A stretch of 47,828 bases of DNA from Saprospiraceae bacterium (GCA_043778415.1 JAYWGG010000356.1:1-47828), one strand, 5' to 3'; positions 3,932 through 47,060 are shown, counted from the stretch's first letter. The notes: generated by a model from the sequence alone, not told the origin. Numbers and translations: made by a program.

Positions 3932-3959
3932 TTCGGTTTGTCTTTGTTGGTAACAGTAG

Positions 3960-4003
3960 AAAGACCGTCCGTTCCAGATTTGGAGCGGACGGTCTTTTTT
4001 ATT
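3960..4003 (+). terminator. Intrinsic terminator of secA
   Basis: Perfect 11-bp stem aagaccgtccg / cggacggtctt with a 14-nt loop, followed by a T-run. Confidence 0.8.
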
Positions 4004-4039
4004 TTCTAAAAAATACTTACTTTTACGAATAGTATTTAG

Positions 4040-4094
4040 GAACGCATCTGAAATAAATTACCCATTTTTTTTGTAAAATCACAATCAATCACTG
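4040..4094. repeat. Partial (5-prime part) copy of the intergenic repeat element
   Basis: gaacgcatctgaaataaattac ... acaatcaatcactg parallels the first ~55 bp of the 4101-4255 copy and lies directly adjacent to it. Confidence 0.6.
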
Positions 4095-4100
4095 TCTTAA

Positions 4101-4255
4101 GAACGCGTCTAAAATAAACTACTTATTTTTTCTGCTCAATTACAGCCAATCACTGCATTATTTTTCGTTACAACGCCCTGCGTTGCGCCTCAAAAATGCC
4201 TTGTTATTGATTGAATTGATTGGAAAAATTAAGTATCTTATTTTTTCTTCATTCC
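4101..4255. repeat. About 155-bp intergenic repeat element, copy 2 (between secA and hsdM)
   Basis: Roughly 90% identical by eye to 231-387, with the same internal inverted repeats. Confidence 0.8.
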
Positions 4256-4338: not shown

Positions 4339-7206
4339 ATGAAAGATAATAAAATCAAACTATCGCAATTAGAAAGTTTCCTGATGAAGGCAGCGGATAT
4401 TCTGCGTGGCAAAATGGATGCGTCAGAATATAAAGAGTTCATTTTTGGAATGTTGTTTCTGAAAAGAATGAGTGATGTGTTTGACCAAAAAAGGGAGCAG
4501 TTTAAAAAGAAGGATTATAAAGATTTAGATGGAGCAGTCTTGGCAGAAATCTTAGAAGATAAAATCACTTACGGTGAAACTTTTTTTGTTCCAAAAAGAG
4601 CAAGATGGAATGAAGAATTTACAGATGAAAATGGTGTGCAACAGCCGCCCATAAAACACTTGCAAAATAATATTGGGCAAATGCTGAATAAAGCTTTAGA
4701 TGCCATCGAAGAGGCAAACCCCGATACACTTTCAGGAATTTTTAAGGGCAGGATAAACTTTAATAAGGAAGTAGATGGAAAGGCTATTGTAAAAAATGCC
4801 GACCTAAAGAAAATGATAGACCATTTCAATGAGTTTCCCGATTTGATCAATGAAAATTTTGAGTTTCCTGATTTGTTGGGTGCAGCTTACGAGTATTTGC
4901 TAAAGCATTTTGCCGATGAAAGCGGTAAAAAAGGAGGGCAATTCTATACACCAAATCAAGTAGTGCGGCTTTTAGTGCAATTAATAAAGCCACAGGAAGG
5001 AATGAGTATTTATGACCCTACTGCTGGCAGTGGTGGTATGCTCATACAGTCACATCAGTATGTAGAAGAACAAGGACAAAATGCAAACAATCTTCAATTG
5101 TTTGGTCAGGAGAATGACCCTACGGTAGTTGCCATTTGTAAAATGAACATTATTTTGCACAACATTACCAAATATACTATTGAGTATGGCGATACATTAG
5201 ATGAACCATTAAACGAAAAAAACGGACAGCTTATTCAGTTTGATAGAGTAATTGCCAATCCTCCATTTTCTCAAAACTATGGTTTGGCTACAATGAAACA
5301 CAAGGAACGTTTCCCTTATGGCTTTGCTCCCGAAGATGGCAAGAAAGCCGATTTAATGTTTGTGCAGCACATGTTGGCAAGCTGCGATAAAAAGGGCAAG
5401 GTTGTAGTCGTAATGCCTCACGGGGTATTGTTTAGAGGAGGTAAAGAAAAAGACATTAGGGAAGGTATGTTAAAAGCCGATGTAATTGAAGGTGTGATTA
5501 GTTTGCCTCCTCAATTATTTTATGGCACTGGTATTCCTGCTTGTATTATTGTACTGAATAAAAACAAGCCCGATGAATTAAAGAATAAAGTGTTTTTTAT
5601 TAATGCTGATAAAGACTTTGCCGAAGGCAAAAAACAAAATACCCTACGACCAGAAGACATTGAAAAAATAGACTACGTTTTTACCAATAAAATAGAAGAA
5701 GCCAAGTATGCCAAGTTGGTTGATATAGCCAACATTGAAGCAAATGATTACACACTAAACATCAGGCGTTATGTAGATAATACCCCAGAGCCTGAACCCG
5801 AAAATGTAAAAGCTCATTTGGTGGGTGGTATTCCTGTGGCAGAAATAAAAGCCGTACAAACTACCCAATGCCTCAAATTCAAATACAACGGCAACCAACT
5901 TTTTAAGGATAAAAACGAAGCCTTTAAAGAATTTGCCATTACTGAAAAAGCAGCCATCAAAGCCAATATTGATGATGATAAAAACGTAAAGGAAACATTA
6001 TTGCATTTAGGCTTAAACCTTGCCGACTGGTGGCAAATTGCCAAAGAAGATTTTTCAAAATTAGCACCAGTAATAGAACCGGTGCAAGCTAATACAGCAA
6101 GCGAGGGGATAGTGAATTATATCTCATTAGGTGGCGATAAAATACCCAAAGTGCGTAAGGAGTTGTTAGATACCATTAAAGAAAAATTTGTACCCATTGG
6201 CGTATTAGATAAGTTTCAGGTAGCAGGTGTGTTTGTAAACTGGTGGGATAATATCAAGTACGACCTCAAAACTATTATGCAAAATGGCTGGGATTCTGGT
6301 CTGATTCCCGATGATTATTTGATAGCCGAGTTTTTCCAAAAAGAAATGACAGAAATTGAGACAACGGAAATAGCACAATCCGAAAAAGAAACAATATTTG
6401 ATGAAGCCATTGAAGAAGCAATAAATCTTTTAGAATTAATACCAAAAGAAGAAGAAACTACCATACCAACAGCTAAAGTAAAAACTGATTTAGCTAAAGA
6501 AATTAAAAGATTATTAGATGAAAAAAAGAAGCCCGAAAAAGCTAAACCCTATCAGGAAGTCGAAAAGAAAATATTAGATACGGAAACAGCAATTAAAGAA
6601 CTAAAGGCTACACTAAAAGCCAAACAAGCCGAACTGGAGCTAAAACTGATTCTAAAACGCTATGGTACAGATGATGAAAAAGCCGAAAGCAAAAAACTAT
6701 TGCTAACAGCTAATACTGAAATAGACAAACTGAAAGACGCCGTAGAAGAAATAAACGAGGAGTTTGATCTGGAAATGACGGCTTTTTCTATCCAACAAAC
6801 CCAAAAAACACTGAAAGCATTAGATAAATCTGTAAAATCAAAAACAACAGCTAAATCAGTGACTCAGACCATTGCAGACGTAACTGCAATAGCCAAGACT
6901 TATAATGCCCTGATTAAAGACAAAACCATTATCCAAACCAAACTAAACAAAATTGATGCCTTGTTTGCAGATATTGGCGGCATTATTACCACCGAACAAA
7001 CCCAAATGTTGATACTCAAAAAGCATTTTGATATTATAAACAACCAACTGCAACGCTACTTAAATGCCGAAAAAAGAACGTTAATAAGTGCCTACGAAAA
7101 CTTGTTTGATAAATACTTTACTTCTGCACAGAGCATAGAACAAAGCCGAAATAAAACGATGAATGAACTCAATGATTTTTTAACCCAATTAAAATATTTG
7201 AATTAA
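4339..7206 (+). CDS. hsdM: Type I restriction-modification methyltransferase subunit HsdM with a ~470-aa C-terminal extension
   Basis: N-terminal HsdM-type region (LESFLMKAADILRG, FGMLFLKRMSD). AdoMet motif DPTAGSGGML and catalytic motif IANPPFS. 955 aa against about 500 for typical HsdM. The distal part is K/E-rich and looks like coiled coil. Confidence 0.92.
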   Translation: MKDNKIKLSQLESFLMKAADILRGKMDASEYKEFIFGMLFLKRMSDVFDQKREQFKKKDYKDLDGAVLAEILEDKITYGETFFVPKRARWNEEFTDENGVQQPPIKHLQNNIGQMLNKALDAIEEANPDTLSGIFKGRINFNKEVDGKAIVKNADLKKMIDHFNEFPDLINENFEFPDLLGAAYEYLLKHFADESGKKGGQFYTPNQVVRLLVQLIKPQEGMSIYDPTAGSGGMLIQSHQYVEEQGQNANNLQLFGQENDPTVVAICKMNIILHNITKYTIEYGDTLDEPLNEKNGQLIQFDRVIANPPFSQNYGLATMKHKERFPYGFAPEDGKKADLMFVQHMLASCDKKGKVVVVMPHGVLFRGGKEKDIREGMLKADVIEGVISLPPQLFYGTGIPACIIVLNKNKPDELKNKVFFINADKDFAEGKKQNTLRPEDIEKIDYVFTNKIEEAKYAKLVDIANIEANDYTLNIRRYVDNTPEPEPENVKAHLVGGIPVAEIKAVQTTQCLKFKYNGNQLFKDKNEAFKEFAITEKAAIKANIDDDKNVKETLLHLGLNLADWWQIAKEDFSKLAPVIEPVQANTASEGIVNYISLGGDKIPKVRKELLDTIKEKFVPIGVLDKFQVAGVFVNWWDNIKYDLKTIMQNGWDSGLIPDDYLIAEFFQKEMTEIETTEIAQSEKETIFDEAIEEAINLLELIPKEEETTIPTAKVKTDLAKEIKRLLDEKKKPEKAKPYQEVEKKILDTETAIKELKATLKAKQAELELKLILKRYGTDDEKAESKKLLLTANTEIDKLKDAVEEINEEFDLEMTAFSIQQTQKTLKALDKSVKSKTTAKSVTQTIADVTAIAKTYNALIKDKTIIQTKLNKIDALFADIGGIITTEQTQMLILKKHFDIINNQLQRYLNAEKRTLISAYENLFDKYFTSAQSIEQSRNKTMNELNDFLTQLKYLN

Positions 7207-8198
7207 TGGAGATTAGAGAAAGTATATACCAAAATGTAAAAGAAGTGTTGTTGCAAGCTCGTAATAACACCTATTCATATATAAATGCACAAATGATTTT
7301 TGCTTATTGGCAAATAGGCAAAATTATTGTTGAGGAGGAACAAAAAGGTGAAAAAAGAGCAGAATATGGCAATTTTTTATTGAAAGAATTAGCACAAAAA
7401 TTAACGCTCGATTTTGGAAAAGGATTTGATGAAAGAGAACTAAGGCGAATTCGCCAATTTTATAATTGCTTTCCAATTCGGGACGCACTGCGTCCCGAAT
7501 TGACTTGGACGCACTACCGATTGATAATAAGGATAGAAGACGAAACGGCAAGGCAATATTATATAACAGAAAGCATTACCCAACACTGGAGTACCCGAAA
7601 ATTAGACCGAAATATTAGTACTCAATATTTTCAACGAATTATAGCCAATAAAACAAAGCAATTAACCAATAGCAAAGAGGTAAATAATACAAATAGCTAT
7701 TTTATTAAAGACCCTTATGTGTTGGAGTTTTTAAACTTATCCAGTAGCATAACACATAAAGAAAAAGACATTGAGAATGCCATCATAAAGCATTTAAAAC
7801 AGTTTTTATTAGAATTAGGTAAAGGATTTGCTTTTGTGGCACAGCAAAAATTAATTAGAACCGAAACTTCCGATTTCTATATTGACTTGGTGTTTTACAA
7901 CTATCTACTTAAATGTTTTGTAGTTATAGATATTAAAAACGCTAAACTTACCCACCAAGATGTAGGGCAGCTGGATATGTATGTACGGATGTATGACGAC
8001 CTCGAAAAAACCGATACTGACAACCCCACCATAGGCATTTTGCTTTGTGCCGATACCGATAATGTAGTAGCCAAATACTCGGTACTGAACGACAATAACA
8101 ACCTTTTTGCAAGCAAATATCAATTGTATTTGCCTACCGAAAAACAACTGCAAGAATGGCTTAAAAATGAACCTTTAAATATTGACAATAATGGTTAA
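7206..8198 (+). CDS. YhcG/DUF1016-family PD-(D/E)xK nuclease-like protein, paralog A
   Basis: 330 aa. N-terminal YWQIGKIIVEEEQKGEKRAEYG block. C-terminal FYIDLVFYNYLLKCFVVIDIKNAKLTHQDVGQLDMYV, giving D...DxK. The start shares one nt with the hsdM stop (TAATG). Confidence 0.8.
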   Translation: MEIRESIYQNVKEVLLQARNNTYSYINAQMIFAYWQIGKIIVEEEQKGEKRAEYGNFLLKELAQKLTLDFGKGFDERELRRIRQFYNCFPIRDALRPELTWTHYRLIIRIEDETARQYYITESITQHWSTRKLDRNISTQYFQRIIANKTKQLTNSKEVNNTNSYFIKDPYVLEFLNLSSSITHKEKDIENAIIKHLKQFLLELGKGFAFVAQQKLIRTETSDFYIDLVFYNYLLKCFVVIDIKNAKLTHQDVGQLDMYVRMYDDLEKTDTDNPTIGILLCADTDNVVAKYSVLNDNNNLFASKYQLYLPTEKQLQEWLKNEPLNIDNNG

Positions 8199-8205
8199 TG
8201 ATAAA

Positions 8206-8251
8206 AAACTCAACGATTTTTTAACCCAATTAAATTATTTAGGATAATGGA
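8206..8251 (+). repeat. Duplicate of the hsdM 3-prime end and stop/start junction
   Basis: 39 of 46 positions are identical to 7165-7210 in my own character-by-character alignment. It encodes a relic KLNDFLTQLNYLG* against the hsdM tail ELNDFLTQLKYLN*. Both copies end in TAATGGA. Confidence 0.85.
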
Positions 8252-9479
8252 AGAAAATCAAATACAAATTCCTGAGGGGTGGGAAGGTAAAGAGTTAGGG
8301 ACTTTGTACTTAGAAAAAAGAAAGTCTAAGTTTAAAGTATCTGATGCTACTAATTACGGAGGCATACCATTTTACACAAGTGGTGATGCTGTTTTGGAGC
8401 ATAACGAAATACAGACGGATGGCGAAAATATTTTTTTGGCTACTGGTGGTATTGCTAATGTAAAGTTTTATATAGGTAATGTTGCCTACTCAACAGATAC
8501 CTATGTAATTGTAGGCAAAGAAAATATTAGTACCCAATTTTTATATTTCAAACTCCTTGACCAGTTGTATTACATCAATACAAATTATTTTCAAGGAAGT
8601 GGTTTAAAGCATTTGCAAAAAAAGGACTTTAAAAAGCATTTTTTTACTTTACCAAAATCCACCACCGAGCAAACCACCATAGCCAACATACTTTCTAAAT
8701 GCGATGAAGCCATAGCCAACACCCAAGCCTTAATAGCCAAATACAGCCGTATAAAAACAGGCTTAATGCAAGACTTGCTTACCAAAGGCATTGATGAAAA
8801 CGGGAATATTAGAAGCGAACAAACCCACGAATTTAAAGATAGCCCGCTTGGGAGGATTCCAGTGGAGTGGGAAGTTAAAAAAATGGGAGATTTAATTTTA
8901 GCTATTGACCCTCAACCCGACCACAGAACGCCACCTGCCTTTATTGATGGTGTGCCTTATGTTGGAATTAGTGACTTTATAAGTAATGGAGAAATTGATA
9001 TAAAGAATTGTAGAAAAGTAGGGTTTAATGTTTTAGAAAAACAAAGAAATTCATTTACAATCGAGTTAGGCGATTTGATATTTGGTAAAATAGGTACAAT
9101 CGGTAAGCCCAAAATATTGCCTGATTTTAATAAGCGGCATTTCACTCTAAGTGCAAACGTTATTCTTATTAAGCCAATTGAATGTCCTGATTTTATTTAT
9201 TGGACTTTAGTTTCTGACTATATAAGTAATCAAGTAAGCCTTGCCATTCATTCTACTTCACAACCTGCATTTGGTATGGAGAAAATTAGAGATTTGAATG
9301 TACTAGCACCAAAACCAAAAGAAAGGGAAAGAATAACTGAAAAGTTGAAAAAGATAGAGGAATTATTTTCAGCAGAGCATATACAACTCGCCAAACTTCA
9401 ATCCCTCAAAACTGGTTTGATGCAAGATTTATTGAGTGGGAGGGTGCGGGTAAGTACATTAATAAAAGAAACGGAATGA
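8247..9479 (+). CDS. hsdS: Type I restriction-modification specificity subunit HsdS
   Basis: 410 aa. Two target-recognition halves are separated and followed by the conserved helices KTGLMQDLLTKG (central) and KTGLMQDLLSGRVRV (C-terminal). Confidence 0.92.
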   Translation: MEENQIQIPEGWEGKELGTLYLEKRKSKFKVSDATNYGGIPFYTSGDAVLEHNEIQTDGENIFLATGGIANVKFYIGNVAYSTDTYVIVGKENISTQFLYFKLLDQLYYINTNYFQGSGLKHLQKKDFKKHFFTLPKSTTEQTTIANILSKCDEAIANTQALIAKYSRIKTGLMQDLLTKGIDENGNIRSEQTHEFKDSPLGRIPVEWEVKKMGDLILAIDPQPDHRTPPAFIDGVPYVGISDFISNGEIDIKNCRKVGFNVLEKQRNSFTIELGDLIFGKIGTIGKPKILPDFNKRHFTLSANVILIKPIECPDFIYWTLVSDYISNQVSLAIHSTSQPAFGMEKIRDLNVLAPKPKERERITEKLKKIEELFSAEHIQLAKLQSLKTGLMQDLLSGRVRVSTLIKETE

Positions 9480-10492
9480 TGCAAATAAAAAAAGACCTTA
9501 TACAGCAAATACAAGCCATCATAGCCAATGCACAAGCAAAGGCTATCCGTGCCGTAGATACGGAAAGGGTATTGATGTACTGGCAAATTGGCAAAGTAAT
9601 ATTTGAAGAGGAGCAGCAAGGGAAAAACCGTGCCGATTATGGTTCTTTTTTAATAAAATCCTTAGCAGAAAGCTTGCAACCACAGTTTGGCAGTGGCTTT
9701 TCTTACCGTCAATTAAACTGGTATAGACAGTTTTATAAAGGGTTTCCAATTGTGTCCGCACTGCGGACACAATTCAGTTGGTCACACTACAAAACATTGT
9801 TAAGTATCGACAGTCAAGATAAAAAAGACTTTTACATAGCCGAGACAGAGAAAAACAACTGGACAGCAAGGCAACTGGAACGCCAAGTAAATAGCCAATT
9901 ATTTGAACGCTTATTATTGAGCAATGATGTGCAAAGTGTGTTGGCAGTAGCCCGTGAAGAAAAACTACCTACGGATGCTAAAGAAATTATTAAAGACCCA
10001 ATGGTATTGGAATTTTTGGGCTTACGCAGAGAAACAGCGTACTACGAAAAAGATTTAGAAACCGCCATCATTACCCATTTACAGGATTTTATTTTAGAAT
10101 TGGGCAATGGTTTTTCGTTTGTAGCGAGGCAAAAACGCATATATATTGAAGGCGATGAATTTTTTATAGACTTGGTTTTTTATAATCGCTTGTTGCAATG
10201 CTTTGTAATTATTGAAATAAAAACCACCAAATTAACCCATCAAAACATTGGGCAATTGCAGATGTATGTAAATTATTACGATAGGTTTGAAAAACAAGAT
10301 TTTGAAAACAATGCTATTGGCATTTTGCTTTGCACCGATAAAAACGATGCAGTAGTTAAAATTACATTACCTGAAAACAATAAAAATATTATAGCCAGTA
10401 AATACCAACTCTATTTACCTACTGAGCAGCAATTGATAGATGAAGTAAAAAAGGAAATCGAAAAATTAGACAATAGCAAAACTAACCAATGA
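9476..10492 (+). CDS. YhcG/DUF1016-family PD-(D/E)xK nuclease-like protein, paralog B
   Basis: 338 aa. YWQIGKVIFEEEQQGKNRADYG block. C-terminal FFIDLVFYNRLLQCFVIIEIKTTKLTHQNIGQLQMYV, giving D...ExK. ATGA overlaps with both the hsdS stop and the hsdR start. Confidence 0.8.
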   Translation: MMQIKKDLIQQIQAIIANAQAKAIRAVDTERVLMYWQIGKVIFEEEQQGKNRADYGSFLIKSLAESLQPQFGSGFSYRQLNWYRQFYKGFPIVSALRTQFSWSHYKTLLSIDSQDKKDFYIAETEKNNWTARQLERQVNSQLFERLLLSNDVQSVLAVAREEKLPTDAKEIIKDPMVLEFLGLRRETAYYEKDLETAIITHLQDFILELGNGFSFVARQKRIYIEGDEFFIDLVFYNRLLQCFVIIEIKTTKLTHQNIGQLQMYVNYYDRFEKQDFENNAIGILLCTDKNDAVVKITLPENNKNIIASKYQLYLPTEQQLIDEVKKEIEKLDNSKTNQ

Positions 10493-13400
10493 TAAAGAGC
10501 AACGATAAAACCACGGGTAATTTAGGTTCATCGCTTAAATTAGATGAAAAAAGCCACGTTGAACAACCGTTCATTGAGCAGTTAAAAGGTTTAGGCTGGA
10601 ACAAAGGCAGCAATCAAGTGTTGGAACTGCCCATGCAACAAACACCCGACCAGAGTTTTCGTACTTCGTTTGCAGAAGTGGTTTTGCAGCCCAAACTTCG
10701 CCAGTCATTAATGACAATCAATCCATTTTTAACAGATGTGCAAGTGGACGAAGTGGTTAGGAAGATGACTACTTTCCAGAAAATCAGCCTGATAGAAAAC
10801 AACCAGCAAGTGCTAACTTATCTGTTAGAAGGCACAAGAGTGGCTACCAATGAGCAAACAGGGGAACTCAGCCCGACGGTGCGGTTCATTGATTTTGAAA
10901 ACATTGAGAACAATATTTTTACAGCTATTTCGCAATTCAAAGTAAGAGTAACCGGCACAGACCACCACATAATACCCGACCTTGTATTATTTGTCAATGG
11001 TTTGCCTGTTGTAGTAATAGAAGCCAAATCATCAAAAGTAAAAGAATCCATTGCCGAAGCCATAGACCAGCTTATGCGGTATAGTGAACAACGAGGCGAC
11101 ACAGGCGAAGGCAACAAAGAATTATTTTTTTACAATCAGTTTATCATTGCTACCTGCCGTACCGAAGCCAAGTTTGGCACCATAACCACAGGTATAGAAA
11201 AACACTTTTATCGTTGGACAGACCCCTATCCTCGGTCATTGAATGATTTGGAACACGGTGCATCTAGCCCAAACGACCAGCAACGTATGGTTGCAGGTAT
11301 GTTGGATTTAAGAAACCTATTAGACATAATTCAGGTATTTACCGTTTTTCAAATAGACGATAAAGGCAAAAAAATAAAAGTAGTAGGCAGATACCAACAG
11401 TTTAGAGCAGTAAAAATAACAGCTAAAAGGCTAATAGAGGGTAGAAATCCACTGGAGCGTGGCGGTATTATTTGGCACACACAAGGTTCGGGCAAGTCGC
11501 TTACAATGATGTTTTTGGTAAGAGAAATGCGGCTAAAGCCAGCTTTGCAGTCTTGGAAAATAGTTTTTGTAACCGATAGAACACAATTAGAAGAACAGCT
11601 ATCCGAAACTGGGCACAGCATCGGTTTTACCATCAAAAACGCAAACTACATCAACTCTAAAGCCAAGCCAGACGGTAAGAGTTTGAAAGAATTATTGAGC
11701 AATGATAACTCGGATATGGTAATGGCGATGATTCATAAGTTTCAAGAAAATGGAGAGTTGGAAGGCTCGCCGCAATTTCCCGAATTAAATGCCAATAGCA
11801 ATATTTTAGTAATGACCGATGAAGCCCATCGTGCTCAATATTCAATACTTGCAGCTAATTTAGACAAAGCTTTACCCAATGCCACATCAATAGGTTTTAC
11901 GGGTACACCCACAAGCAAAACCGAAAAAAAATATAAAGATTACATTGATAAATACACCATGCGGCAGGCAATAGATGATGGCGTTACTTTAGAAATAGTA
12001 TATGAAGGCTTTACTCACAATGCCGAAATTCCTGATAAAGCTGGAATGGATAAAAAGTTTGAAGATGTATTTAGCGATTATCAACTAACAGAACGCTTAC
12101 AGATATTAGGCTTTGGTACTCGTGATGCTTATTTAGAAGCCATTGAAACCATTAGAGATAAGGCAAAAAATATGGTAACACACTATGTAGAGCAAATATT
12201 TACAGGTGGTTTTAAGGCTCAAATAGTTGCCAATAGCCGTGAAGCAGCAGTAAGGTATAAAGTGGCTATTGAGGAAGCATTAAAGCAAAAAATTGCTGAA
12301 TTGGAAATTAGCAAATCCATAATGGATGTAAAAATAGATGTGCTAAAAAAACTTGAGGTTGCAGTAGTTATTTCAGGCAGTCATAACGATGCTTTGCATA
12401 TAAAGGCATTTACCAATGGTGATTATCACAAAAAGAGTATTAAGCGTTTCAAACTTCCATTTGGCAAAACAGATGAAGAAGATACAGCCCTTAATGGCAA
12501 TGTAGGTATCATCATAGTAAACAATATGTTGCTTACTGGCTTTGATGCACCTATTGAGCAAGTAATGTATTTAGATAGAGTAATAAAAGAACACAATTTA
12601 TTACAAGCTATTGCAAGGGTAAACAGAATTGGCTCTGAAGGCAAAAACAAAGGATTTATTGTTGATTATGTAGGTGTAGGGCATCATTTAAAACGAGCTT
12701 TAGATACTTATGCCAAAAAAGAAATACAAGACATTTTAGGATGTATTAGTAACGATGAAGCAGAACTAAATGAACTTATAAAAGCACACAAGGACATTTG
12801 GGAATTTCTTGAAAAGAACGGCTTAACAGATTTTTCGGATGCTGATTTGTTCAATGATATTTTTTATGATGAAGACATACGATTTGAATATATCAAGTTG
12901 TTTAAAAAATTCACTTCTTGTTTTAATGATGTTTTACCAAAAAAAGAAGCCTTAAAATTTTTTACTGACTGGAAAAGTTTTATTGAAATAAATGAATTAG
13001 CACACAGACACTTTAGAGATGGTCGTTTCAGTATGAAGGATATTCCACCAAAATTGAGAGGCATCGCAGATGAATTTTTGAAGAGTAAAGGCTTAGAACA
13101 AACCGTTGCACCAATTTCAATTATGGCAGATAACTTTCAACAAGGGGTAAACGCAAAGAAAAGAGAAAAAACAAAAGCAGCCGAAGTAGAACACGCCATT
13201 AGGCATTACATTGATATTAATTTAGATGAAGACCCCGCATTGTTTGCTTCGTTTGCCAAGACCTTGGAGGAGATTTTAGAAAACTTCAAAGGCAACTGGA
13301 AAGCAATCTATGAAGAGTTAGAAAAACTAAGGGAGAAAATTAAGAACAGAGAAAAGGAAGAAACCTACGGTTTAGACCGCAAAAAACAAATGCCTTTCTT

Positions 13401-13686
13401 CAATTCATTTAAAGATTACCTATTTGAAAATAGAAAATTAACCGATGAAGAAATTGCCCAAAACGTAAACCTAACTCAGCATATTTTCAATTTAGTTTCC
13501 ACCGAAATAAAATTGACAGGCTTTTGGGATAGTACTCCGGCACAGTCTAAACTCAAAGCAGAATTGCAAAAGATGCTGTTATCGACAGAGTTCAATAAAT
13601 TACCGAACATTGTGCTGAAAAGAAGCGAGTTGATTTCAAGAATAATGGAGTTGGCGGAAACCAATCATTTTAAAATTATTGCATAA
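10489..13686 (+). CDS. hsdR: Type I restriction endonuclease subunit HsdR
   Basis: 1065 aa. N-terminal PD-(D/E)xK (IIPDLVLFVNGLPVVVIEAKS). Helicase motif I TQGSGKSLTM, motif II MTDEAHRAQ, and QAIARVNR. Confidence 0.95.
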   Translation: MIKSNDKTTGNLGSSLKLDEKSHVEQPFIEQLKGLGWNKGSNQVLELPMQQTPDQSFRTSFAEVVLQPKLRQSLMTINPFLTDVQVDEVVRKMTTFQKISLIENNQQVLTYLLEGTRVATNEQTGELSPTVRFIDFENIENNIFTAISQFKVRVTGTDHHIIPDLVLFVNGLPVVVIEAKSSKVKESIAEAIDQLMRYSEQRGDTGEGNKELFFYNQFIIATCRTEAKFGTITTGIEKHFYRWTDPYPRSLNDLEHGASSPNDQQRMVAGMLDLRNLLDIIQVFTVFQIDDKGKKIKVVGRYQQFRAVKITAKRLIEGRNPLERGGIIWHTQGSGKSLTMMFLVREMRLKPALQSWKIVFVTDRTQLEEQLSETGHSIGFTIKNANYINSKAKPDGKSLKELLSNDNSDMVMAMIHKFQENGELEGSPQFPELNANSNILVMTDEAHRAQYSILAANLDKALPNATSIGFTGTPTSKTEKKYKDYIDKYTMRQAIDDGVTLEIVYEGFTHNAEIPDKAGMDKKFEDVFSDYQLTERLQILGFGTRDAYLEAIETIRDKAKNMVTHYVEQIFTGGFKAQIVANSREAAVRYKVAIEEALKQKIAELEISKSIMDVKIDVLKKLEVAVVISGSHNDALHIKAFTNGDYHKKSIKRFKLPFGKTDEEDTALNGNVGIIIVNNMLLTGFDAPIEQVMYLDRVIKEHNLLQAIARVNRIGSEGKNKGFIVDYVGVGHHLKRALDTYAKKEIQDILGCISNDEAELNELIKAHKDIWEFLEKNGLTDFSDADLFNDIFYDEDIRFEYIKLFKKFTSCFNDVLPKKEALKFFTDWKSFIEINELAHRHFRDGRFSMKDIPPKLRGIADEFLKSKGLEQTVAPISIMADNFQQGVNAKKREKTKAAEVEHAIRHYIDINLDEDPALFASFAKTLEEILENFKGNWKAIYEELEKLREKIKNREKEETYGLDRKKQMPFFNSFKDYLFENRKLTDEEIAQNVNLTQHIFNLVSTEIKLTGFWDSTPAQSKLKAELQKMLLSTEFNKLPNIVLKRSELISRIMELAETNHFKIIA

Positions 13687-13706
13687 TTGTCAATTATTAA
13701 TTATTT

Positions 13707-14441
13707 GTGATGGAAGAGAAAAAAACATATAATAGTGATAAATTTGCTCAATTAGTCATTAACAATTTACCATTAATAACTATTAAATATAGTAAAATAC
13801 GTAAAACGGTAAATATTACCGTTGAAAGAGATAGGCGTATTGTAGTCACTGCCCCCGAAGAAACGTCTTTAGAAAAAATAGAAGAAATAATACAATCAAA
13901 AAAACAATGGTTGAAAGAAAAAATAAACCATGCCCAGAAGTATCCAGTTGAAGTTCAGCAAAAAGAATTTGTATCTGGTGAAGCCATTATGTATTTAGGA
14001 ACAAATTACCAACTAGAAGTAGTAAACGAAGCTATTGAGGGAATTGAGTTTGAGCAAAGATTCAGAATTTCTAAAGCCAATCAACCCAATGCAAATGCTT
14101 TATTTAAACATTGGTACTTACATCAAGCATTAAAGTTAATTGAACCATTGGCTGCCAATTTTGCAAAGAATTTAGGTGTAATATATAATGAGTTCAAAAC
14201 CTCCGAAATGAAATATCGTTGGGGTTCTTGCACTCCTGCCAATAATATCATTTTCAATTGGCGAATTATCAAAGCACCGATGTATGTTTTGGAGTATTTA
14301 GTAGCCCACGAATTAGTACATTTAATGGAGAACAATCACACACCGAGATTTTGGAATATACTATCCATACAAGTACCTAATTATTTGAAAGCAAAAAAAT
14401 GGCTCAAAGAAAATGGACATTTGTTGGAGGTAGACTTTTAA
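13707..14441 (+). CDS. DUF45/YgjP-like (M48-related) zinc metallopeptidase-fold protein
   Basis: 244 aa with HExxH in LVAHELVHLMENNHTPRFW near the C-terminus. Sits 20 nt downstream of hsdR on the same strand. Confidence 0.75.
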   Translation: MMEEKKTYNSDKFAQLVINNLPLITIKYSKIRKTVNITVERDRRIVVTAPEETSLEKIEEIIQSKKQWLKEKINHAQKYPVEVQQKEFVSGEAIMYLGTNYQLEVVNEAIEGIEFEQRFRISKANQPNANALFKHWYLHQALKLIEPLAANFAKNLGVIYNEFKTSEMKYRWGSCTPANNIIFNWRIIKAPMYVLEYLVAHELVHLMENNHTPRFWNILSIQVPNYLKAKKWLKENGHLLEVDF

Positions 14442-14442
14442 C

Positions 14443-14798
14443 TAACTCATGTTACGCAAAGAAACTTTTTTACCAAAATTTTCAAACTGCATTTTATTCA
14501 AGGTGACTGTATTTTCAGACGTGCCTGGTAGAAATTCAAGTTTTTGCAAAAATATCGTCTGGCGAAGTAAAAACTGTTTGAAGTCTGGCGGAGCCGACGA
14601 GTATTTTTTGCGCGCCGACGAGATTTTTAAGCAAAAACTTGAATCTCTACAGAGTATTTGATTTTTTTGCTTACTTTCTTCTCCCTCCCCTCTGGGAAAG
14701 GTCGGGTTGGGGATAAAAAAAGTGACAAAGGACAAGAAAATTACCACAAAAATCAAGCTCAAGTGAGCCAATTTAAAATCCTTGCGTAACATGAGTTA
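14443..14798. repeat. 356-bp element bounded by perfect 17-bp inverted repeats (MITE-like or structured element)
   Basis: taactcatgttacgcaa (14443-14459) is the exact reverse complement of 14782-14798. A nested 13-bp inverted repeat ttcaagtttttgc (14535-14547) pairs with gcaaaaacttgaa (14631-14643). An internal direct repeat gccgacgag occurs twice. Confidence 0.7.
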
Positions 14799-14823
14799 AT
14801 AAAACAAATATTTTGAGTAAAAT

Positions 14824-14862
14824 AAAAAAAAGACCGTGCGAAATCCGCACGGTCTTTTTTTG
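14824..14862. terminator. Bidirectional intrinsic terminator
   Basis: 10-bp stem agaccgtgcg / cgcacggtct with a 5-nt loop, an A-run upstream and a T-run downstream. Lies between the Type I islet and the convergent MbnP-like gene. Confidence 0.8.
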
Positions 14863-14881: not shown

Positions 14882-15628
14882 CTACTTCAAGCTAAAAGCA
14901 CTCTGATATTGCTTGGTGATGAATACCGAAACGACAGTATCTTGAGTGCTGTGCGCCGTTTGGTGGAGCGTAATATCTACATTTTCGGTCGCATTTTCTA
15001 AAATTTTGTTTACATCAAACTGCACCGCCAGCTTCTGGTTGGAGTCGTTGATACTAAAATTTTTGTTGAGCGTGACTTCGCGATAAAAGCGGTCGGCGCC
15101 CGTGTGGTAGGCAAAATAAACCACGCCATTGTTGGACGAAAATTGCCCTTCGGTCTTCGAGAAAATATAACTGCGCCAGCTGCTCCAATACTCGGCGGTT
15201 TCTGAAAGCGGATTATCGCCCCCAAAATCGGCGGGCGTTTTAGCATTTTCGCCACTTCCTACACCGATACCGAAGCGCAAACCTTTGTATTCGCCACTCG
15301 GAATATTTTTTAGAGTAAGATTTTGCCCTGCCGCAGCAGCGTTAATATCCGAAAAACTCAAGTCCACGAAGCTCGTCGGCAACACATTTACTTCCGAGCC
15401 GTCGGTTTTTATCAGTCGAGTGTTGGAGAGATAAAACGCAGACCTCGTGAACTTCAAGGGTTTTGACTGGTAAGTTACAGGCTGCAACATCACCAACGGC
15501 TGCCCCGAATAGTTGGCAGTAAAATTGAGCTGTGCTGTGTTACCCATGTTTTTGTCAGTGGTCGTGCAGTTAGAAAAAAGCGATGCCACAGAAGCAAACG
15601 CAAGCAAAATAAGGAATTTATTTTTCAT
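14882..15628 (-). CDS. MbnP-like lipoprotein (putative)
   Basis: Lipoprotein signal MKNKFLILLAFASVASLFSNC. I chose this internal Met; the ORF track extends to 15658. Blocks FYLSNTRLIKTDGSEV and YHTGADRFYREVTL resemble the MbnP family as I recall it. Confidence 0.5.
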   Translation of the reverse strand: MKNKFLILLAFASVASLFSNCTTTDKNMGNTAQLNFTANYSGQPLVMLQPVTYQSKPLKFTRSAFYLSNTRLIKTDGSEVNVLPTSFVDLSFSDINAAAAGQNLTLKNIPSGEYKGLRFGIGVGSGENAKTPADFGGDNPLSETAEYWSSWRSYIFSKTEGQFSSNNGVVYFAYHTGADRFYREVTLNKNFSINDSNQKLAVQFDVNKILENATENVDITLHQTAHSTQDTVVSVFITKQYQSAFSLK

Positions 15629-15691
15629 CTGTTCAGATTTTTTTGTGAGAATAATCATACTCTCAAACGTTTGAAAATTGATTTTGTTATG

Positions 15692-16534
15692 TCAAGGCAG
15701 CACAAAAAAAGCGGACGATGTGTTGCTAAAAATCGTATTGGCAACGGTCAGGTCGTCGTCGGTGCTAAACTGGACGTTCTGAAACCACTTTTTAAAGTTG
15801 ATGCCCAATTTTAGGGTAATGTCGTAGCCGACGCGAATTTTTCTGTTGAAAGAGAGAGAAACCAACGCCGCTTGAGGTTTAGAAATAATAATTTGAGAGG
15901 GCAAAAGCCCCGCTACGGTGTCGCGTTGGAACGAAATTTTATTAAAAAAATAGCCTTTGCTGGCGTTCCACATCGTGTCGGGCTGCACTCCCAACACGGA
16001 GTTTGCCGCGAATTTGGTGGTGTCCACCTGATTGAAGTAATCGGAAAGCCCTACCCGAAACTGCAAGGTCGTAAAAAAACCGTTGTCCGCAAAAGTCCCC
16101 AACGAAAACGATTTGAAAGATTGATTGTCGGGCGAAACGAGCAGAATATCTTTGCGAGCAAAACTATCTTTAGAGTTGCCGATGTGAAACGTATCGGACA
16201 CTGTAGCTACCGAACCGTCGGCTCTAATGAACTGAAAATCAGACAGATAGAATTTTATTTTGTGGATACTAAAAAATTGAACTCCGTCCGTCGTATATTT
16301 TTTGTCATAAAAAAAAGTAATCAGCGAGTCGCCACGCGACGTGACGGTATCGGTTTTGAAGTAAGTTTCGAGCGTAAGTTTGGGATACACGCAGCAGCAA
16401 GTGTTGTCGGCGGACGGGTCGTAGTTGGCGGCACCAACGTCCAAACAGCCGTCTTTTGCTTTTTTGCAAGCCCCAAAAAGCAACAATAAAAGTACGATTT
16501 GTACTATCGAAATGCCTAATTTCTGACGGTTCAT
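15692..16534 (-). CDS. MbnP-like lipoprotein paralog (putative)
   Basis: Lipoprotein signal ...LLLLLFGACKK, Cys-rich GCLDVGAANYDPSADNTCCCVYP, and FYLSDFQFIRADGSV, which parallels the neighbouring gene. Confidence 0.45.
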   Translation of the reverse strand: MNRQKLGISIVQIVLLLLLFGACKKAKDGCLDVGAANYDPSADNTCCCVYPKLTLETYFKTDTVTSRGDSLITFFYDKKYTTDGVQFFSIHKIKFYLSDFQFIRADGSVATVSDTFHIGNSKDSFARKDILLVSPDNQSFKSFSLGTFADNGFFTTLQFRVGLSDYFNQVDTTKFAANSVLGVQPDTMWNASKGYFFNKISFQRDTVAGLLPSQIIISKPQAALVSLSFNRKIRVGYDITLKLGINFKKWFQNVQFSTDDDLTVANTIFSNTSSAFFVLP

Positions 16535-28821: not shown

Positions 28822-31722
28822 ATGACGAATAAAGAAAAAGGTTTGAAGAAAGTGATGGAGTTGGTCGCTCGCTTTGAGGAGCAACTTCCTGCGTACACGA
28901 AATCTAATTACAACGAAACGCAGGTGCGTATAGATTTTATTGACCCGTTTTTTCAGGCATTGGGTTGGGACATTGACAATACGCGAGGGCTGGCGGAAAG
29001 CTATAGAGAAGTAATCCATGAAGACCGCGTAAAAGTGGGCGGTGCTACCAAAGCTCCTGACTACTCGTTTAAGTTGAGTGGTGGGCAACGTTTATTTTTT
29101 GTAGAAGCCAAAAAGCCAAGCATACTTATAAAAAATGCGATGCAGCCTGCTTATCAAGTTCGGAGATATGGTTGGAATGCGAAATTAAACGTAAGTCTTA
29201 TCACCGATTTTGAGGAATTTGCTGTCTATGACTGTACCAAAAAGCCCAATCCAACTGACCAAACCAGCGTGGCAAGGCTTGAATATTTGACATTCCGGGA
29301 GTACGAAAAAAAGTGGGATTTTCTTTGGAATACTTTTAGCAAAGAAGCAGTAATCAATGGCAGCTTTGATAAATTTGTCGCTACTACCGCGACTAAAAAA
29401 GGAACTACGACCGTCGATAAAGAATTTTTAATCTCCCTCGACCAGTGGCGGACTTTACTCGCCGAAACCATTAGCAAAGACAATAAGCAACTCAACGAAG
29501 ACGAACTAAATTTTGTAGTCCAACAAACTTTGGACCGAATAATATTTTTGAGAATCTGCGAAGACAGAGGTATTGAACCCTACGGAAGTTTGCAGGAGGC
29601 TCTGAAAAGCGGTGACTATTACAAAAATCTTTTGCAAGAGTTCAAACAAGCCGACCAAAAATACAACAGTGGTCTATTTGACTTCAAAAAAGATACTACC
29701 AGCCGCCAAGTAAGCATCAATAACAAGACGCTCTACACAATTATAGACCAGCTCTATTATCCAGAGTGTCCTTATGAGTTTTCGGTGTTGAGTGTAGAAA
29801 TATTGGGAAGTGCCTACGAACAGTTTTTGGGAAAAACAATTACCATCAACACGCGCGGCAAAGCGGTCATAGAACTAAAGCCCGAAGTAAGAAAAGCGGG
29901 CGGCGTTTATTATACTCCTCAGTATATCGTGGATTATATTGTAGCCAACACCGTAGGAAAACTAACGGTTGGTCTGACCCCGACGCAAGTAAGTGAGTTA
30001 AAAATAGTAGATCCAGCCTGTGGCAGTGGCAGTTTTTTGTTGGGGGCGTATCAGTATCTATTGTACTGGCACAAAGATTATTATGCTCAAAATAACACAA
30101 AAAACACACTCACGCCCGAAGGCAATCTGACCACCACCGAGAAAAAAAGAATATTGCTCAACAATATTTATGGCGTTGATATAGATACCAATGCGGTAGA
30201 AGTAACCAAACTTTCTTTGCTGCTCAAATGTATGGAGGGCGAAACTCAAGCCAGTATTGCCCAACAAATGACTATCTTCAAAGAGCGTGTGCTGCCTACG
30301 CTCGACGAAAATATAAAGAGCGGCAACAGCCTGATAGACACAGATTATTACGACAATCAATTAGACTTTGGCGAAGAGCGGAAAATAAAACCGTTCAACT
30401 GGCAAAAAGCGTTTCCTGCGGTGTTCAATAGGAATGTACAGATTGATAATTCTTTGCCGTTCAAGGAGCAATATGACAAAGTGAAGAATTTGGACGCTAC
30501 GACCAAAGAGTTTATCAGCAGTATCGTCCGCGAACCAGTAGCTCAATACGGAACAAAAAACAACGGAGGCTTTGATGTAGTGATTGGAAATCCGCCGTAT
30601 GTAGATTATAGGCTAATTGGTGAGAATCAAGTTCGGTATTTAAACCAAAAATATCAATCTACACAAACAAAAGAAAAATGGAGTTTATATTTACCATTTG
30701 TAGAGTTAGGAACAAAAATATTACGTCCAAATGGAATGTATGGTAACATTATACCTAATACTTTTTTATCAGCAGACTTCGGAAAACCAACAAGGAATCT
30801 ACTACTCAATAAAACATCAATCAATGAAATTGTAGATGTGTCTGTTCTAAAAGTATTTGGTAGTGTGGGGACGTATCCAATTCTATTATTTTATACCAAT
30901 GCTTTTACGATTACTAATGAAATTAAGATTAGTAACCCGAAGTCTTCAGCCGAAATAGAAAATTTACGTTTTGAAAAAATTAAACAATCAGACATAGTTT
31001 CCAAGAACCAGAACTACATCATTTCGACCGCCTACAACAGTAACAATTTTAATCTCATTCAAAAAATTGAAAAACAAGGCGAAATTCTAAAGAATATTGC
31101 TACTAAATTTAGTTGGGGTACATCAATTGTTGGCTTTAAATCTTACAAAATATCCGAAAATGACTATAAAAAATTGAGTGAAAAAGATAAATTGATGTAC
31201 CGAAAAGTATTGCAAACGGCAGATATTAAAAATTATGGAATACAATGGAAAAAAGAATACATAGACAAATCAATTTATTCGGAAAATGTTAAAGAATGCT
31301 TCGAACAAGATAAAATAGTTATAGCAAGGCTTACAAAAAGAATACAAGCAACATTAGATACTCAAAAATATTATTTAGGAAAATCCTCTCAAATTATTAC
31401 CGACAAAATAGACGCAAAGTATTTATTGGCTTTACTGAATTCAAATATTTTAAACTATTTTTTTTCTATAAAATTTACCAACACACATTTGGCTGGTGGT
31501 TATTTGCGCTTTGATATTCCTTACCTTCAGCAGTTACCAATCAGAATAATTGATACCAAAAAGAGCAATGAAAAACAAATTCAAAACCAAATTATTTCCT
31601 GTGTCGAACAATTATTGACGCTCAACAAAGACCTACGAACCGCCAATCTCGATACCCAAAAGCAACAGATAAAAATGAGAATAGACTACAATGAAGACAA
31701 AATAAACGCTTTAGTATATTAA
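28822..31722 (+). CDS. Type IIG restriction-modification enzyme (Eco57I-family; nuclease, gamma-class N6-adenine methyltransferase and specificity domain fused)
   Basis: 966 aa. N-terminal PD-(D/E)xK (APDYSF...LFFVEAKKP). Motif I VDPACGSGSFLL. Motif IV VVIGNPPYV. C-terminal TaqI-like specificity region. Ends at an in-frame TAA just before a conserved tail. Confidence 0.85.
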   Translation: MTNKEKGLKKVMELVARFEEQLPAYTKSNYNETQVRIDFIDPFFQALGWDIDNTRGLAESYREVIHEDRVKVGGATKAPDYSFKLSGGQRLFFVEAKKPSILIKNAMQPAYQVRRYGWNAKLNVSLITDFEEFAVYDCTKKPNPTDQTSVARLEYLTFREYEKKWDFLWNTFSKEAVINGSFDKFVATTATKKGTTTVDKEFLISLDQWRTLLAETISKDNKQLNEDELNFVVQQTLDRIIFLRICEDRGIEPYGSLQEALKSGDYYKNLLQEFKQADQKYNSGLFDFKKDTTSRQVSINNKTLYTIIDQLYYPECPYEFSVLSVEILGSAYEQFLGKTITINTRGKAVIELKPEVRKAGGVYYTPQYIVDYIVANTVGKLTVGLTPTQVSELKIVDPACGSGSFLLGAYQYLLYWHKDYYAQNNTKNTLTPEGNLTTTEKKRILLNNIYGVDIDTNAVEVTKLSLLLKCMEGETQASIAQQMTIFKERVLPTLDENIKSGNSLIDTDYYDNQLDFGEERKIKPFNWQKAFPAVFNRNVQIDNSLPFKEQYDKVKNLDATTKEFISSIVREPVAQYGTKNNGGFDVVIGNPPYVDYRLIGENQVRYLNQKYQSTQTKEKWSLYLPFVELGTKILRPNGMYGNIIPNTFLSADFGKPTRNLLLNKTSINEIVDVSVLKVFGSVGTYPILLFYTNAFTITNEIKISNPKSSAEIENLRFEKIKQSDIVSKNQNYIISTAYNSNNFNLIQKIEKQGEILKNIATKFSWGTSIVGFKSYKISENDYKKLSEKDKLMYRKVLQTADIKNYGIQWKKEYIDKSIYSENVKECFEQDKIVIARLTKRIQATLDTQKYYLGKSSQIITDKIDAKYLLALLNSNILNYFFSIKFTNTHLAGGYLRFDIPYLQQLPIRIIDTKKSNEKQIQNQIISCVEQLLTLNKDLRTANLDTQKQQIKMRIDYNEDKINALVY

Positions 31723-46695: not shown

Positions 46696-47060
46696 TACGA
46701 TTGATTGATGTTTAGGAGAAGTTGTTTGAGTGTTTGCGTCGCCCATTGTCGGAATTGTGTTGCTACTTTAGAGTTCACTCTATAGCCTACCGACAATATT
46801 AGGTCTAAATTAAAGAACTCAATAGTTCGTTTAACCTCTCTTGTACCTTCTTTTTGAACTGTTGCAAAAAATGCAACAGTTGAAATTTCTATTAATTCTC
46901 CTTCATTAAATATATTTTTAATGTGCCGAGAAATTACAGATTTATCCCTTCCAAAAAGAGATGAAATTTGGTCTAAACTCGCCCAAACCATTTCGCCGCT
47001 TGCGTCTTGGCGGAGTTCAAGGCTGCCATTTTCGGCTTGATAAATAATTAATTCTTCCAT
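46695..47060 (-). CDS. RhuM-family N-terminal module only (121 aa), embedded between mod and res
   Basis: IIYQAENGSLELR...MVWASLDQISSLFGRDKSVISRHIKNIFNEGEL...FFNLDLILSVGYRVNSKVATQFRQWATQTL matches the N-terminal third of RhuM-family proteins as I recall them. It stops where full-length members continue. Confidence 0.65.
   Translation of the reverse strand: MEELIIYQAENGSLELRQDASGEMVWASLDQISSLFGRDKSVISRHIKNIFNEGELIEISTVAFFATVQKEGTREVKRTIEFFNLDLILSVGYRVNSKVATQFRQWATQTLKQLLLNINQS

Follow-up and report, generated by a model that had tools for sequence, protein, structure and literature searches.

Of the predicted nucleases in bacterial defence islands that are still uncharacterised, those of the DUF1016/YhcG family are among the most abundant, and a nuclease gene inside a Type I restriction-modification (R-M) locus has a precedent in EcoprrI, where prrC lies between hsdS and hsdR. 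Here we describe a stretch of 47,828 nucleotides (nt) from a Saprospiraceae bacterium (GCA_043778415.1, JAYWGG010000356.1:1-47828), referred to below as the window, in which two DUF1016 genes, DUF1016-A and DUF1016-B (A and B), are embedded in one Type I operon at 4339-14441. A first-pass annotation of this DNA had likened the arrangement to PrrC and to the Campylobacter rlo genes, which is fair as far as position is concerned: a nuclease gene is embedded in the Type I locus in both cases, and B occupies the slot of prrC. However, PrrC joins an ABC-ATPase-like domain to an anticodon nuclease domain, acts on tRNA and depends on EcoprrI, whereas the DUF1016 proteins are predicted to have ParB-like helical and PD-(D/E)xK domains instead and have close relatives without hsd genes. 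We give a probability of about 0.55 to the reading that A and B are two independently captured, autonomous cargo genes in generic slots of a mobile Type I operon, and not parts of its enzyme.

The embedding of DUF1016 in hsd loci has already been published, and the window is another instance of it. Milman et al. 2023 (PMC9881135) report a “DUF1016 family protein” 17-fold enriched next to programmed-inversion targets, as well as a Type I system with DUF1016 between the core hsd genes, where RhuM, GIY-YIG or Fic can also be found. Type I loci with accessory genes (Campylobacter rlo, the loci of Milman et al., TgvAB of Vibrio VPI-2) resemble the window in carrying these genes in the M-S and S-R gaps. 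Unlike those loci, the window fills both gaps from one family, with two lineages, in a single tightly coupled unit and, as far as the cited passages describe the others, is also distinct in that its first cargo gene lies between directly repeated copies of the hsdM tail.

A Type I operon with two DUF1016 lineages

Open reading frame (ORF) calling gives the gene order hsdM, DUF1016-A, hsdS, DUF1016-B, hsdR, ygjP, all on the + strand. HsdM, HsdS and HsdR are found in one locus with their characteristic domains (Pfam, PADLOC, NCBIfam), as in a Type I R-M system. The features, with lengths in amino acids (aa), are as follows.

3958-3999, +: terminator-like hairpin after secA, 19-bp stem then T run; left edge of the island of low guanine-cytosine (GC) content
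4339-7206, +: hsdM, long form, 955 aa with a C-terminal extension of ~450 aa (Pfam HsdM_N + N6_Mtase)
7166-7210, +: “tail” repeat copy 1, the final 41 nt of hsdM and the TAATGGA junction with DUF1016-A
7206-8198, +: DUF1016-A, 330 aa, slot-1 cargo (Pfam PF17761 + PF06250; PADLOC PDC-S02, E 5e-132)
8207-8251, +: “tail” repeat copy 2, an untranslated remnant of the hsdM 3′ end just upstream of the hsdS ATG at 8247
8247-9479, +: hsdS, 410 aa, two target-recognition domains (Pfam Methylase_S in two stretches; PADLOC Specificity_I)
9476-10492, +: DUF1016-B, 338 aa (337 from ATG 9479), slot-2 cargo (PF17761 + PF06250; PDC-S02, E 4e-139)
10489-13686, +: hsdR, 1065 aa (Pfam HSDR_N, SWI2_SNF2, T1R_D3-like; TIGR00348 hsdR)
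13707-14441, +: ygjP, DUF45-like metallopeptidase, final gene of the operon family (Pfam YgjP-like, E 3e-57)
14825-14861, -: terminator-like hairpin of the adjoining minus-strand genes; right edge of the island

The junctions read from the sequence are TAATG (7204-7208), ATGA (9476-9479) and ATGA (10489-10492), the last of which overlaps the hsdR start with the DUF1016-B stop. The alternative B start, ATG 9479, is the database gene call and overlaps the hsdS stop too. The gene order, ORF positions, intactness and three overlapping junctions had all been read correctly in the first-pass annotation. Neither A nor B has a spacer able to hold its own promoter, and no terminator-like site was found on the + strand within 4339-14441. 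A sigma-70 promoter scan returned 41 sites against 38.7 expected in shuffles, i.e. no better than chance, and no exact Bacteroidetes -33/-7 motif was found upstream of the window hsdM. A and B are probably co-transcribed with the hsd genes and translationally coupled to them at the three junctions. The spacer before hsdR ranges from 9 to ~280 nt in sister operons, and a tightness like that of the window is seen only in the bare-core operon L241 (9 nt).

A and B are full-length members of the YhcG/DUF1016 family (PF17761 + PF06250; COG4804), which PADLOC lists as phage-defence candidate PDC-S02, and both have the two domains in N-to-C order above the cut-offs. DUF1016_N (PF17761, cut-off 32.8 bits) matches A at 144.6 bits (E 3e-42) and B at 141.2 bits (E 3e-41), and YhcG_C PDDEXK (PF06250, cut-off 32.5 bits) matches them at 193.2 bits (E 3e-57) and 191.2 bits (E 1e-56), respectively. 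The catalytic residues are E203, D227, D242-I-K244 and Q255-x3-Y259 in A, and E208, D232, E247-I-K249 and Q260-x3-Y264 in B. In alignments of 12 and 69 sequences, the E, D, (D/E)xK and RecB-type QxxxY positions are invariant in A, B and their relatives, and many N-domain residues are likewise invariant across the family. The first-pass assignment to DUF1016/YhcG PD-(D/E)xK nucleases is therefore upheld by Pfam and by the catalytic residues, and the conserved blocks quoted there are present. Both proteins show the E-D-(D/E)xK motif of the YhcG family, and no feature sets them apart from it. The PD-(D/E)xK motif of YhcG was predicted, and a link to DUF91/NucS drawn, by Kosinski et al. 2005 (PMC1189080). 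None of A, B, YgjP and the 453-aa cargo protein described below is represented by an NCBIfam model.

An alignment of A with B shows 46% identity across 340 columns (E 9e-113), in line with the half or so estimated by eye at first pass; the figure is 39% in the N-domain and 59% in the nuclease domain. Database relatives of A number more than 100, at 59-83% identity; those of B, at 82-92%, fall into more than 120 clusters (90% identity) and come from several Bacteroidota genera. Since each is far closer to outside genes than to the other, A and B were evidently acquired separately, and sequence comparison places them in different, independently captured DUF1016 lineages. A recent tandem duplication was considered and rejected, 46% between the two standing against 80-92% to outside relatives. 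Strict co-inheritance with hsdR was rejected as well: between the window and its closest sister, L001, synonymous divergence is 1.26 for A and 1.38 for B versus 0.78 for hsdR, although such values approach saturation. A and B are intact genes subject to strong purifying selection, with ratios of nonsynonymous to synonymous substitution (dN/dS) of 0.05-0.08 for A and 0.03-0.08 for B, compared with 0.07-0.10 for hsdM and hsdR.

A search of PDB sequences with the family profile gave no match at E <= 1. The AlphaFold2 models have predicted local distance difference test (pLDDT) scores of 73 (A) and 65 (B), with a confident helical N-domain and an alpha/beta C-domain. In Foldseek, the C-domain is nearest to NucS/EndoMS (2vld, 5gke; probability 1.0 over ~90-100 residues at 17-21% identity, with weak E-values of 5e-3 or worse), followed at weak E-values by Card1/Can2, Cas4 and Bax1, and the N-domain is nearest, again at weak E-values, to Noc/ParB; weak Pfam matches to NucS_C (for B) and HTH_ParB agree with this placement, as does the work of Kosinski et al. 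The likeness to NucS/EndoMS lies in the C-terminal nuclease domain, whereas the helical, ParB/Noc-like N-domain and the genomic context differ. Judging by the models, each protein would pair a helical, ParB/Noc-like DNA-binding domain with a PD-(D/E)xK nuclease domain of the NucS/RecB type, and is most likely a Mg-dependent DNA endonuclease that brings a domain of its own for DNA binding.

The block from 4.0 to 14.9 kb has a GC content of ~35% versus 45-50% in the flanks, falling from ~50% to ~33% at 4000 and rising again past 15000. It adjoins secA, and proteins sorted by the type IX secretion system, a sign of Bacteroidota, are encoded in the same genome. The block is best explained as a horizontally acquired Type I R-M operon of a family with a long HsdM. 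The window hsdM matches PADLOC MTase_I at E 4e-248 and TIGR00497 hsdM at E 1.6e-71 (241.6 bits, just below the 242.75-bit cut-off), with strong HsdM_N and N6_Mtase matches. The long HsdM (~960 aa) has more than 100 relatives at 71-91% identity, and the operon family is widespread, mostly in Bacteroidota. The C-terminal extension of HsdM (window 5800-7206, residues ~490-955) has no Pfam domain; its identity across the family is 71-91%, and PADLOC MTase_I model PDLC03031 covers the protein up to residue ~790. The 340-nt region upstream of hsdM contains two tandem 61-nt units, 75% identical (4036-4157), with a third partial copy near 4226-4248. In sister operons L228, L232-L235 and L240, a 97-aa helix-turn-helix (HTH) gene, C-protein-like controller in type, lies just upstream of hsdM; the window holds no homologue of it, and its upstream region has no similarity to that of the sisters.

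Variable cargo and hsdM-tail repeats

Nine operons, the window and eight sisters, keep the frame hsdM-[slot 1]-hsdS-[slot 2]-hsdR-ygjP, and ygjP follows hsdR in every sister whose contig reaches that far. The hsdM genes of the sisters are 74-89% identical to that of the window and the hsdR genes 78-90% where compared; L245 was included by the same gene frame. The contents of the slots, with loci numbered as in our survey, are as follows.

Slot 1, empty: L228, L240, L241
Slot 1, Abi_2: L234, L239
Slot 1, A-type DUF1016: window, L007, L245, L001 (L001 with a B-type copy as well)
Slot 2, empty: L241
Slot 2, Bro-N: L228
Slot 2, Bro-N + Fic: L240
Slot 2, Fic: L234
Slot 2, PDDEXK_3 + Abi_2: L007
Slot 2, PDDEXK_3 + RhuM: L245
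Slot 2, 453-aa unknown protein: L001, L239
Slot 2, DUF1016-B: window only

On this comparison, both inter-hsd slots are generic, variable cargo sites. The exact order M-A-S-B-R was not found beyond the window among the operons compared. It had been remarked at first pass that no function is described for such a doubled arrangement; this is true, but multi-copy DUF1016 loci are common (four genes in L001, two in one hsd operon in L053, and several tandems outside R-M), and each of the two slots also takes other cargo. The operon family thus forms a natural series, with both slots empty, one filled or both filled and with interchangeable cargo, in which the contributions of the cargo can be studied.

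The closest sister, L001, has an hsdR 90% and a ygjP 89% identical to those of the window. It carries a B-type DUF1016 gene (83%) directly upstream of an A-type gene (83%), has no hsdM, and has an MmeI-like enzyme upstream. In its first 17 kb (L001 1-17000; JGI 3300042330 Ga0453924_0000010), four DUF1016 genes of four lineages, with pairwise identities of 26-47%, are interspersed among a PLD/SNF2 helicase, the MmeI-like enzyme, a truncated RhuM gene, hsdS, the 453-aa unknown, hsdR and ygjP. The 453-aa protein, which has no Pfam match, recurs between hsdS and hsdR (L001 11280-12641, L239 13392-14753), and the L001 copy has no NCBIfam match. An Argonaute (Piwi domain) gene directly follows hsdR in L013 (15354-17014) or ygjP in L239 (18750-18919); these two loci belong to different Type I families in the same kind of integrase/DUF6617/DUF3987-primase element.

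The relatives of A and B differ in where they are found. Those of A at 80-83% identity are all in slot 1 of sister operons. A relative 84% identical to B (P0200) stands alone between an nth-like HhH-GPD gene and ubiA, overlapping ubiA, a context seen in 22 contigs; it has no R-M gene within 8 kb and is under the same purifying selection as B. A 92% relative (P0124) lies after a PLD/SNF2 helicase and ahead of a 23S_rRNA_IVP gene and HipA, Type I genes being absent from its surroundings. An 89% relative (P0126) occupies the gap between hsdM and hsdS in a Type I system unrelated to that of the window and carried by an integrase/primase element; hsdM and hsdR there are 31% and 22% identical to those of the window. 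These contexts argue, at the level of gene neighbourhoods, that B is autonomous and needs no hsd genes. A belongs to a lineage habitual in slot 1 of this operon family, and B to a promiscuous, highly conserved one that has been fitted exactly to ORF boundaries. The flanks of B-type genes in 20 contexts showed no conserved sequence, inverted repeats or target site, except for a RhuM remnant common to L001 and L013.

DUF1016-A and hsdS are separated by 48 nt that duplicate the hsdM 3′ end: 7166-7210 and 8207-8251 are 87% identical over 45 nt, and both include the TAATGGA junction. In the window, A is therefore a ~1-kb insert between direct repeats of the hsdM tail, while B, which lacks such a repeat, runs exactly from the hsdS stop to the hsdR start; the only repeat near it (74%, A-rich) was judged a chance match. 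Tails were searched with a 32-nt consensus at up to 7 mismatches, with 200 shuffles as control. The 32-nt core of copy 1 has 2 mismatches to the family consensus, and the shuffles gave none. Two tail copies were present in all five operons with a filled slot 1, alike for DUF1016 and Abi_2 cargo, and a single copy, at the hsdM end, in all three with an empty slot 1. In L001, one copy follows each of the two cassettes. Besides the window, the structure upstream of hsdS is seen in L001, L007, L234, L239 and L245. The consensus is absent from four DUF1016 contexts outside the long-HsdM family (L013, L053, L224, L242), and the repeat therefore belongs to that family and not to DUF1016. It is tied to the slot and not to the type of cargo. 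In the window, L007, L239 and L245, variants private to the operon are found in both of its copies, and the two copies of L245 are identical over the 32-nt core, which points to repeated insertion-coupled duplication or gene conversion between copies and not to one ancient event.

The hsdM-tail repeats may preserve the translation-initiation context of hsdS and provide homology for the insertion, deletion or swapping of cargo. Tentatively, and with well below even odds, we suggest that these 45-60-nt repeats are an attachment or recombination site and the Type I operon a cassette-capture platform, loosely integron-like. If so, promoterless units of an ORF plus an hsdM tail (DUF1016, Abi_2, others) might enter, stack up, be lost or be exchanged where hsdM meets hsdS while hsdM and the hsdS start context stay undisturbed, a picture that we likewise hold only loosely. 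It is conceivable on the same terms that the order B-tail-A-tail-hsdS in L001 is a stacked array and DUF1016-A one cassette. The tail-cargo-tail arrangement is possibly a new element, as the excerpts of the literature on hsd-embedded accessory genes contain no mention of it, and it suggests a simple, testable route by which R-M operons could collect accessory defence genes.

DUF1016 in other contexts and competing explanations

The survey covered 199 DUF1016 loci, 80 from species-representative genomes, 80 from metagenomes (A-related) and 39 from viral contigs; these are the matches listed, ranked by similarity to the queries, and all percentages are therefore rough. The loci were annotated with iteratively built hidden Markov models (HMMs), immediate neighbours were cross-checked with Pfam, and counts of loci with at least two DUF1016 genes were redone on full-length genes because frameshifted single genes had inflated them. 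Of the 195 full-length genes listed, 31 (16%) are R-M-adjacent, and 151 (77%) have no R-M, integrase or DUF1016 neighbour. Among the 31, 21 lie directly downstream of a methyltransferase gene (14 as M>D>S) and 7 directly upstream of one, and one other gene (L224) is placed between hsdS and hsdR like B. Among the loci listed, an R-M gene is the direct neighbour in 4 of 69 from genomes (6%), 12 of 59 from metagenomes (20%) and 13 of 36 from viral contigs (36%). By local HMM annotation, Type I genes occur in 6 of the 80 genome loci, and Pfam on the immediate neighbours gives the same picture.

Of the surveyed DUF1016 genes, 82-88% point the same way as their neighbours; the gap to the downstream gene has a median of 21 nt, and 37 of 133 genes overlap that gene. 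Tight operon embedding is therefore a trait of the DUF1016 family and is not special to the window locus. Among plasmid records, 503 of 72,556 carry DUF1016, with genes next to BREX, next to Shedu with coupling to an integrase, or next to HipA toxins with coupling to a Tn3 resolvase; in catalogued phages the family is rare (14 of 50,697 records). DUF1016 is repeatedly coupled, through overlapping start and stop codons, to a preceding gene for a site-specific recombinase (L237 5700-7963, L238 6292-7924; also L219, L222 and L092), the partners including a tyrosine integrase on an E. coli IncHI1A plasmid and a Tn3 resolvase on a Sulfurimonas plasmid; an integrase is the upstream neighbour in 4 of 70 of the genome sample listed. 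In many loci (L073, L078, L092, L150, L177, L210, L223, L226, L227), DUF1016 is split into two adjacent ORFs, probably as frameshifted pseudogenes. The gene thus decays often, even though its intact copies are under strong purifying selection.

These comparative data favour DUF1016 as a self-sufficient module over a Type I subunit or a guarded toxin, and experiments can therefore begin with single-gene constructs. In the preferred reading of independently captured cargo, A and B would each work alone as a Mg-dependent DNA endonuclease, with no need of the HsdM2S1R2 complex, and the two may form an accessory defence layer or be tolerated passengers, not subunits or guarded toxins. The first-pass proposal that one paralog is paired with the M side and the other with the R side finds no support, since an 89% relative of B sits in an hsdM-hsdS slot, a 92% relative follows a helicase gene, and the B-type copy of L001 is upstream of the A-type copy. 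Functional cooperation of A and B with HsdMSR in the window operon is possible.

Several points weigh against this reading. To our knowledge, biochemical activity has been shown for no DUF1016 protein, and the models behind the predicted activity are moderately confident (pLDDT 65 and 73), with fold matches at E 5e-3 or worse. The survey sample, ranked by similarity, makes the percentages rough, and R-M adjacency is far above what we would expect for a random gene; embedded DUF1016 genes stand very consistently right after the methyltransferase gene, and a functional link to methyltransferases is possible. The presence of A-type and B-type genes together in two related operons, the window and L001, may mean partnership. 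In a cold-seep study, the only report of such a test found, the single PDC-S02 representative, one of eight candidates tried against T7, T5 and T4 in E. coli B, was outside the four protective ones, and even a defence role of DUF1016 is therefore unproven.

The alternatives are taken in descending order of probability. DUF1016 could act in a Type IV-like or structure-specific manner, cutting modified or unusual (branched, mismatched, replicating) foreign DNA and so backing up the Type I enzyme, which we regard as unlikely. Such an enzyme could be tolerated as a solitary nuclease without a cognate methyltransferase, as DUF1016 is, and the family is enriched beside methyltransferase genes as well as in defence islands that also carry BREX, Shedu and toxin-antitoxin genes. 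In E. coli, mrr and mcrBC sit beside hsd. NucS/EndoMS, to which the nuclease domain is nearest, is structure/mismatch-specific, and the greater divergence of the N-domain is as expected if A and B had different targets. Embedded Type IV systems are documented, TgvAB inside a Vibrio Type I locus being one (PMC11411939). However, no known modified-base reader domain was detected with Pfam, the many invariant N-domain residues argue for a conserved and not a diversifying ligand, and the reported phage test without protection included T4, which has modified DNA.

For A and B as selfish passengers, that is promoterless mobile ORFs, homing-like or hitch-hiking, of little benefit to the host and with the hsd operon as a permissive landing site, we see little room. 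The tight co-directional packing, often among housekeeping genes, would suit them, as would the close conservation of the B clade across genera, which implies recent horizontal spread, the frequent split pseudogenes, the plasmid copies with their coupling to integrases and resolvases, and the one phage test without protection. Even solitary copies, however, are under strong purifying selection, the B-type insertions have no conserved target or flank, the tail duplication also flanks Abi_2 and is hence no DUF1016-specific homing scar, and the family is rare in true phages.

We also doubt that A and/or B are latent under HsdMSR and fire as abortive-infection nucleases when an anti-restriction protein disables the enzyme, in the manner of PrrC. 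Their embedding and translational coupling in the operon, the position of B in the hsdS-hsdR slot and the known Abi/toxin-type genes among the other cargo (Abi_2, Fic, RhuM) are in keeping with such a guard, and the R-M guardian concept is established, with PrrC and PARIS as examples (PMC12707154). Against it, relatives of 84-92% identity persist without hsd genes, the B lineage switches both slot and R-M family, and Pfam finds only DUF1016_N and YhcG_C with no PrrC-like ATPase or sensor domain. The first-pass suggestion that the two are R-M-guarded finds no support in view of the solitary 84% relative of B, which remains under purifying selection, and of the 77% of listed genes outside R-M contexts. 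An obligate A-type/B-type pair, whether joined in a heteromer or serving one system with two specificities, is very improbable: the same two lineages do occur in the window and L001, and tandem DUF1016 pairs exist elsewhere (L053, L093, L097, L099), but A is found without B (L007, L245) and B without A (L013, L021, L242), and the window and L001, which differ in A/B order, may reflect a single ancestral event.

Other features of the window

Between ygjP and the next gene, a segment of ~370 nt (14437-14804) has 26-nt inverted repeats, 88% complementary, at its ends. It contains two nested inverted-repeat pairs and an internal 116-aa ORF without a Pfam match, and has the look of a miniature inverted-repeat transposable element. 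Immediately to the right of the island lie two adjacent MbnP-domain paralogues of 258 and 280 aa (14882-16534, -). A second low-GC island (28822-31722, +) encodes a 966-aa fused methyltransferase-restriction enzyme of the Eco57I/MmeI type with a TaqI_C specificity domain, and no DUF1016 gene was found beside it. A third (43732-46746, -, toward 47787) encodes a Type III Res-like protein with ResIII helicase and RE_endonuc domains.

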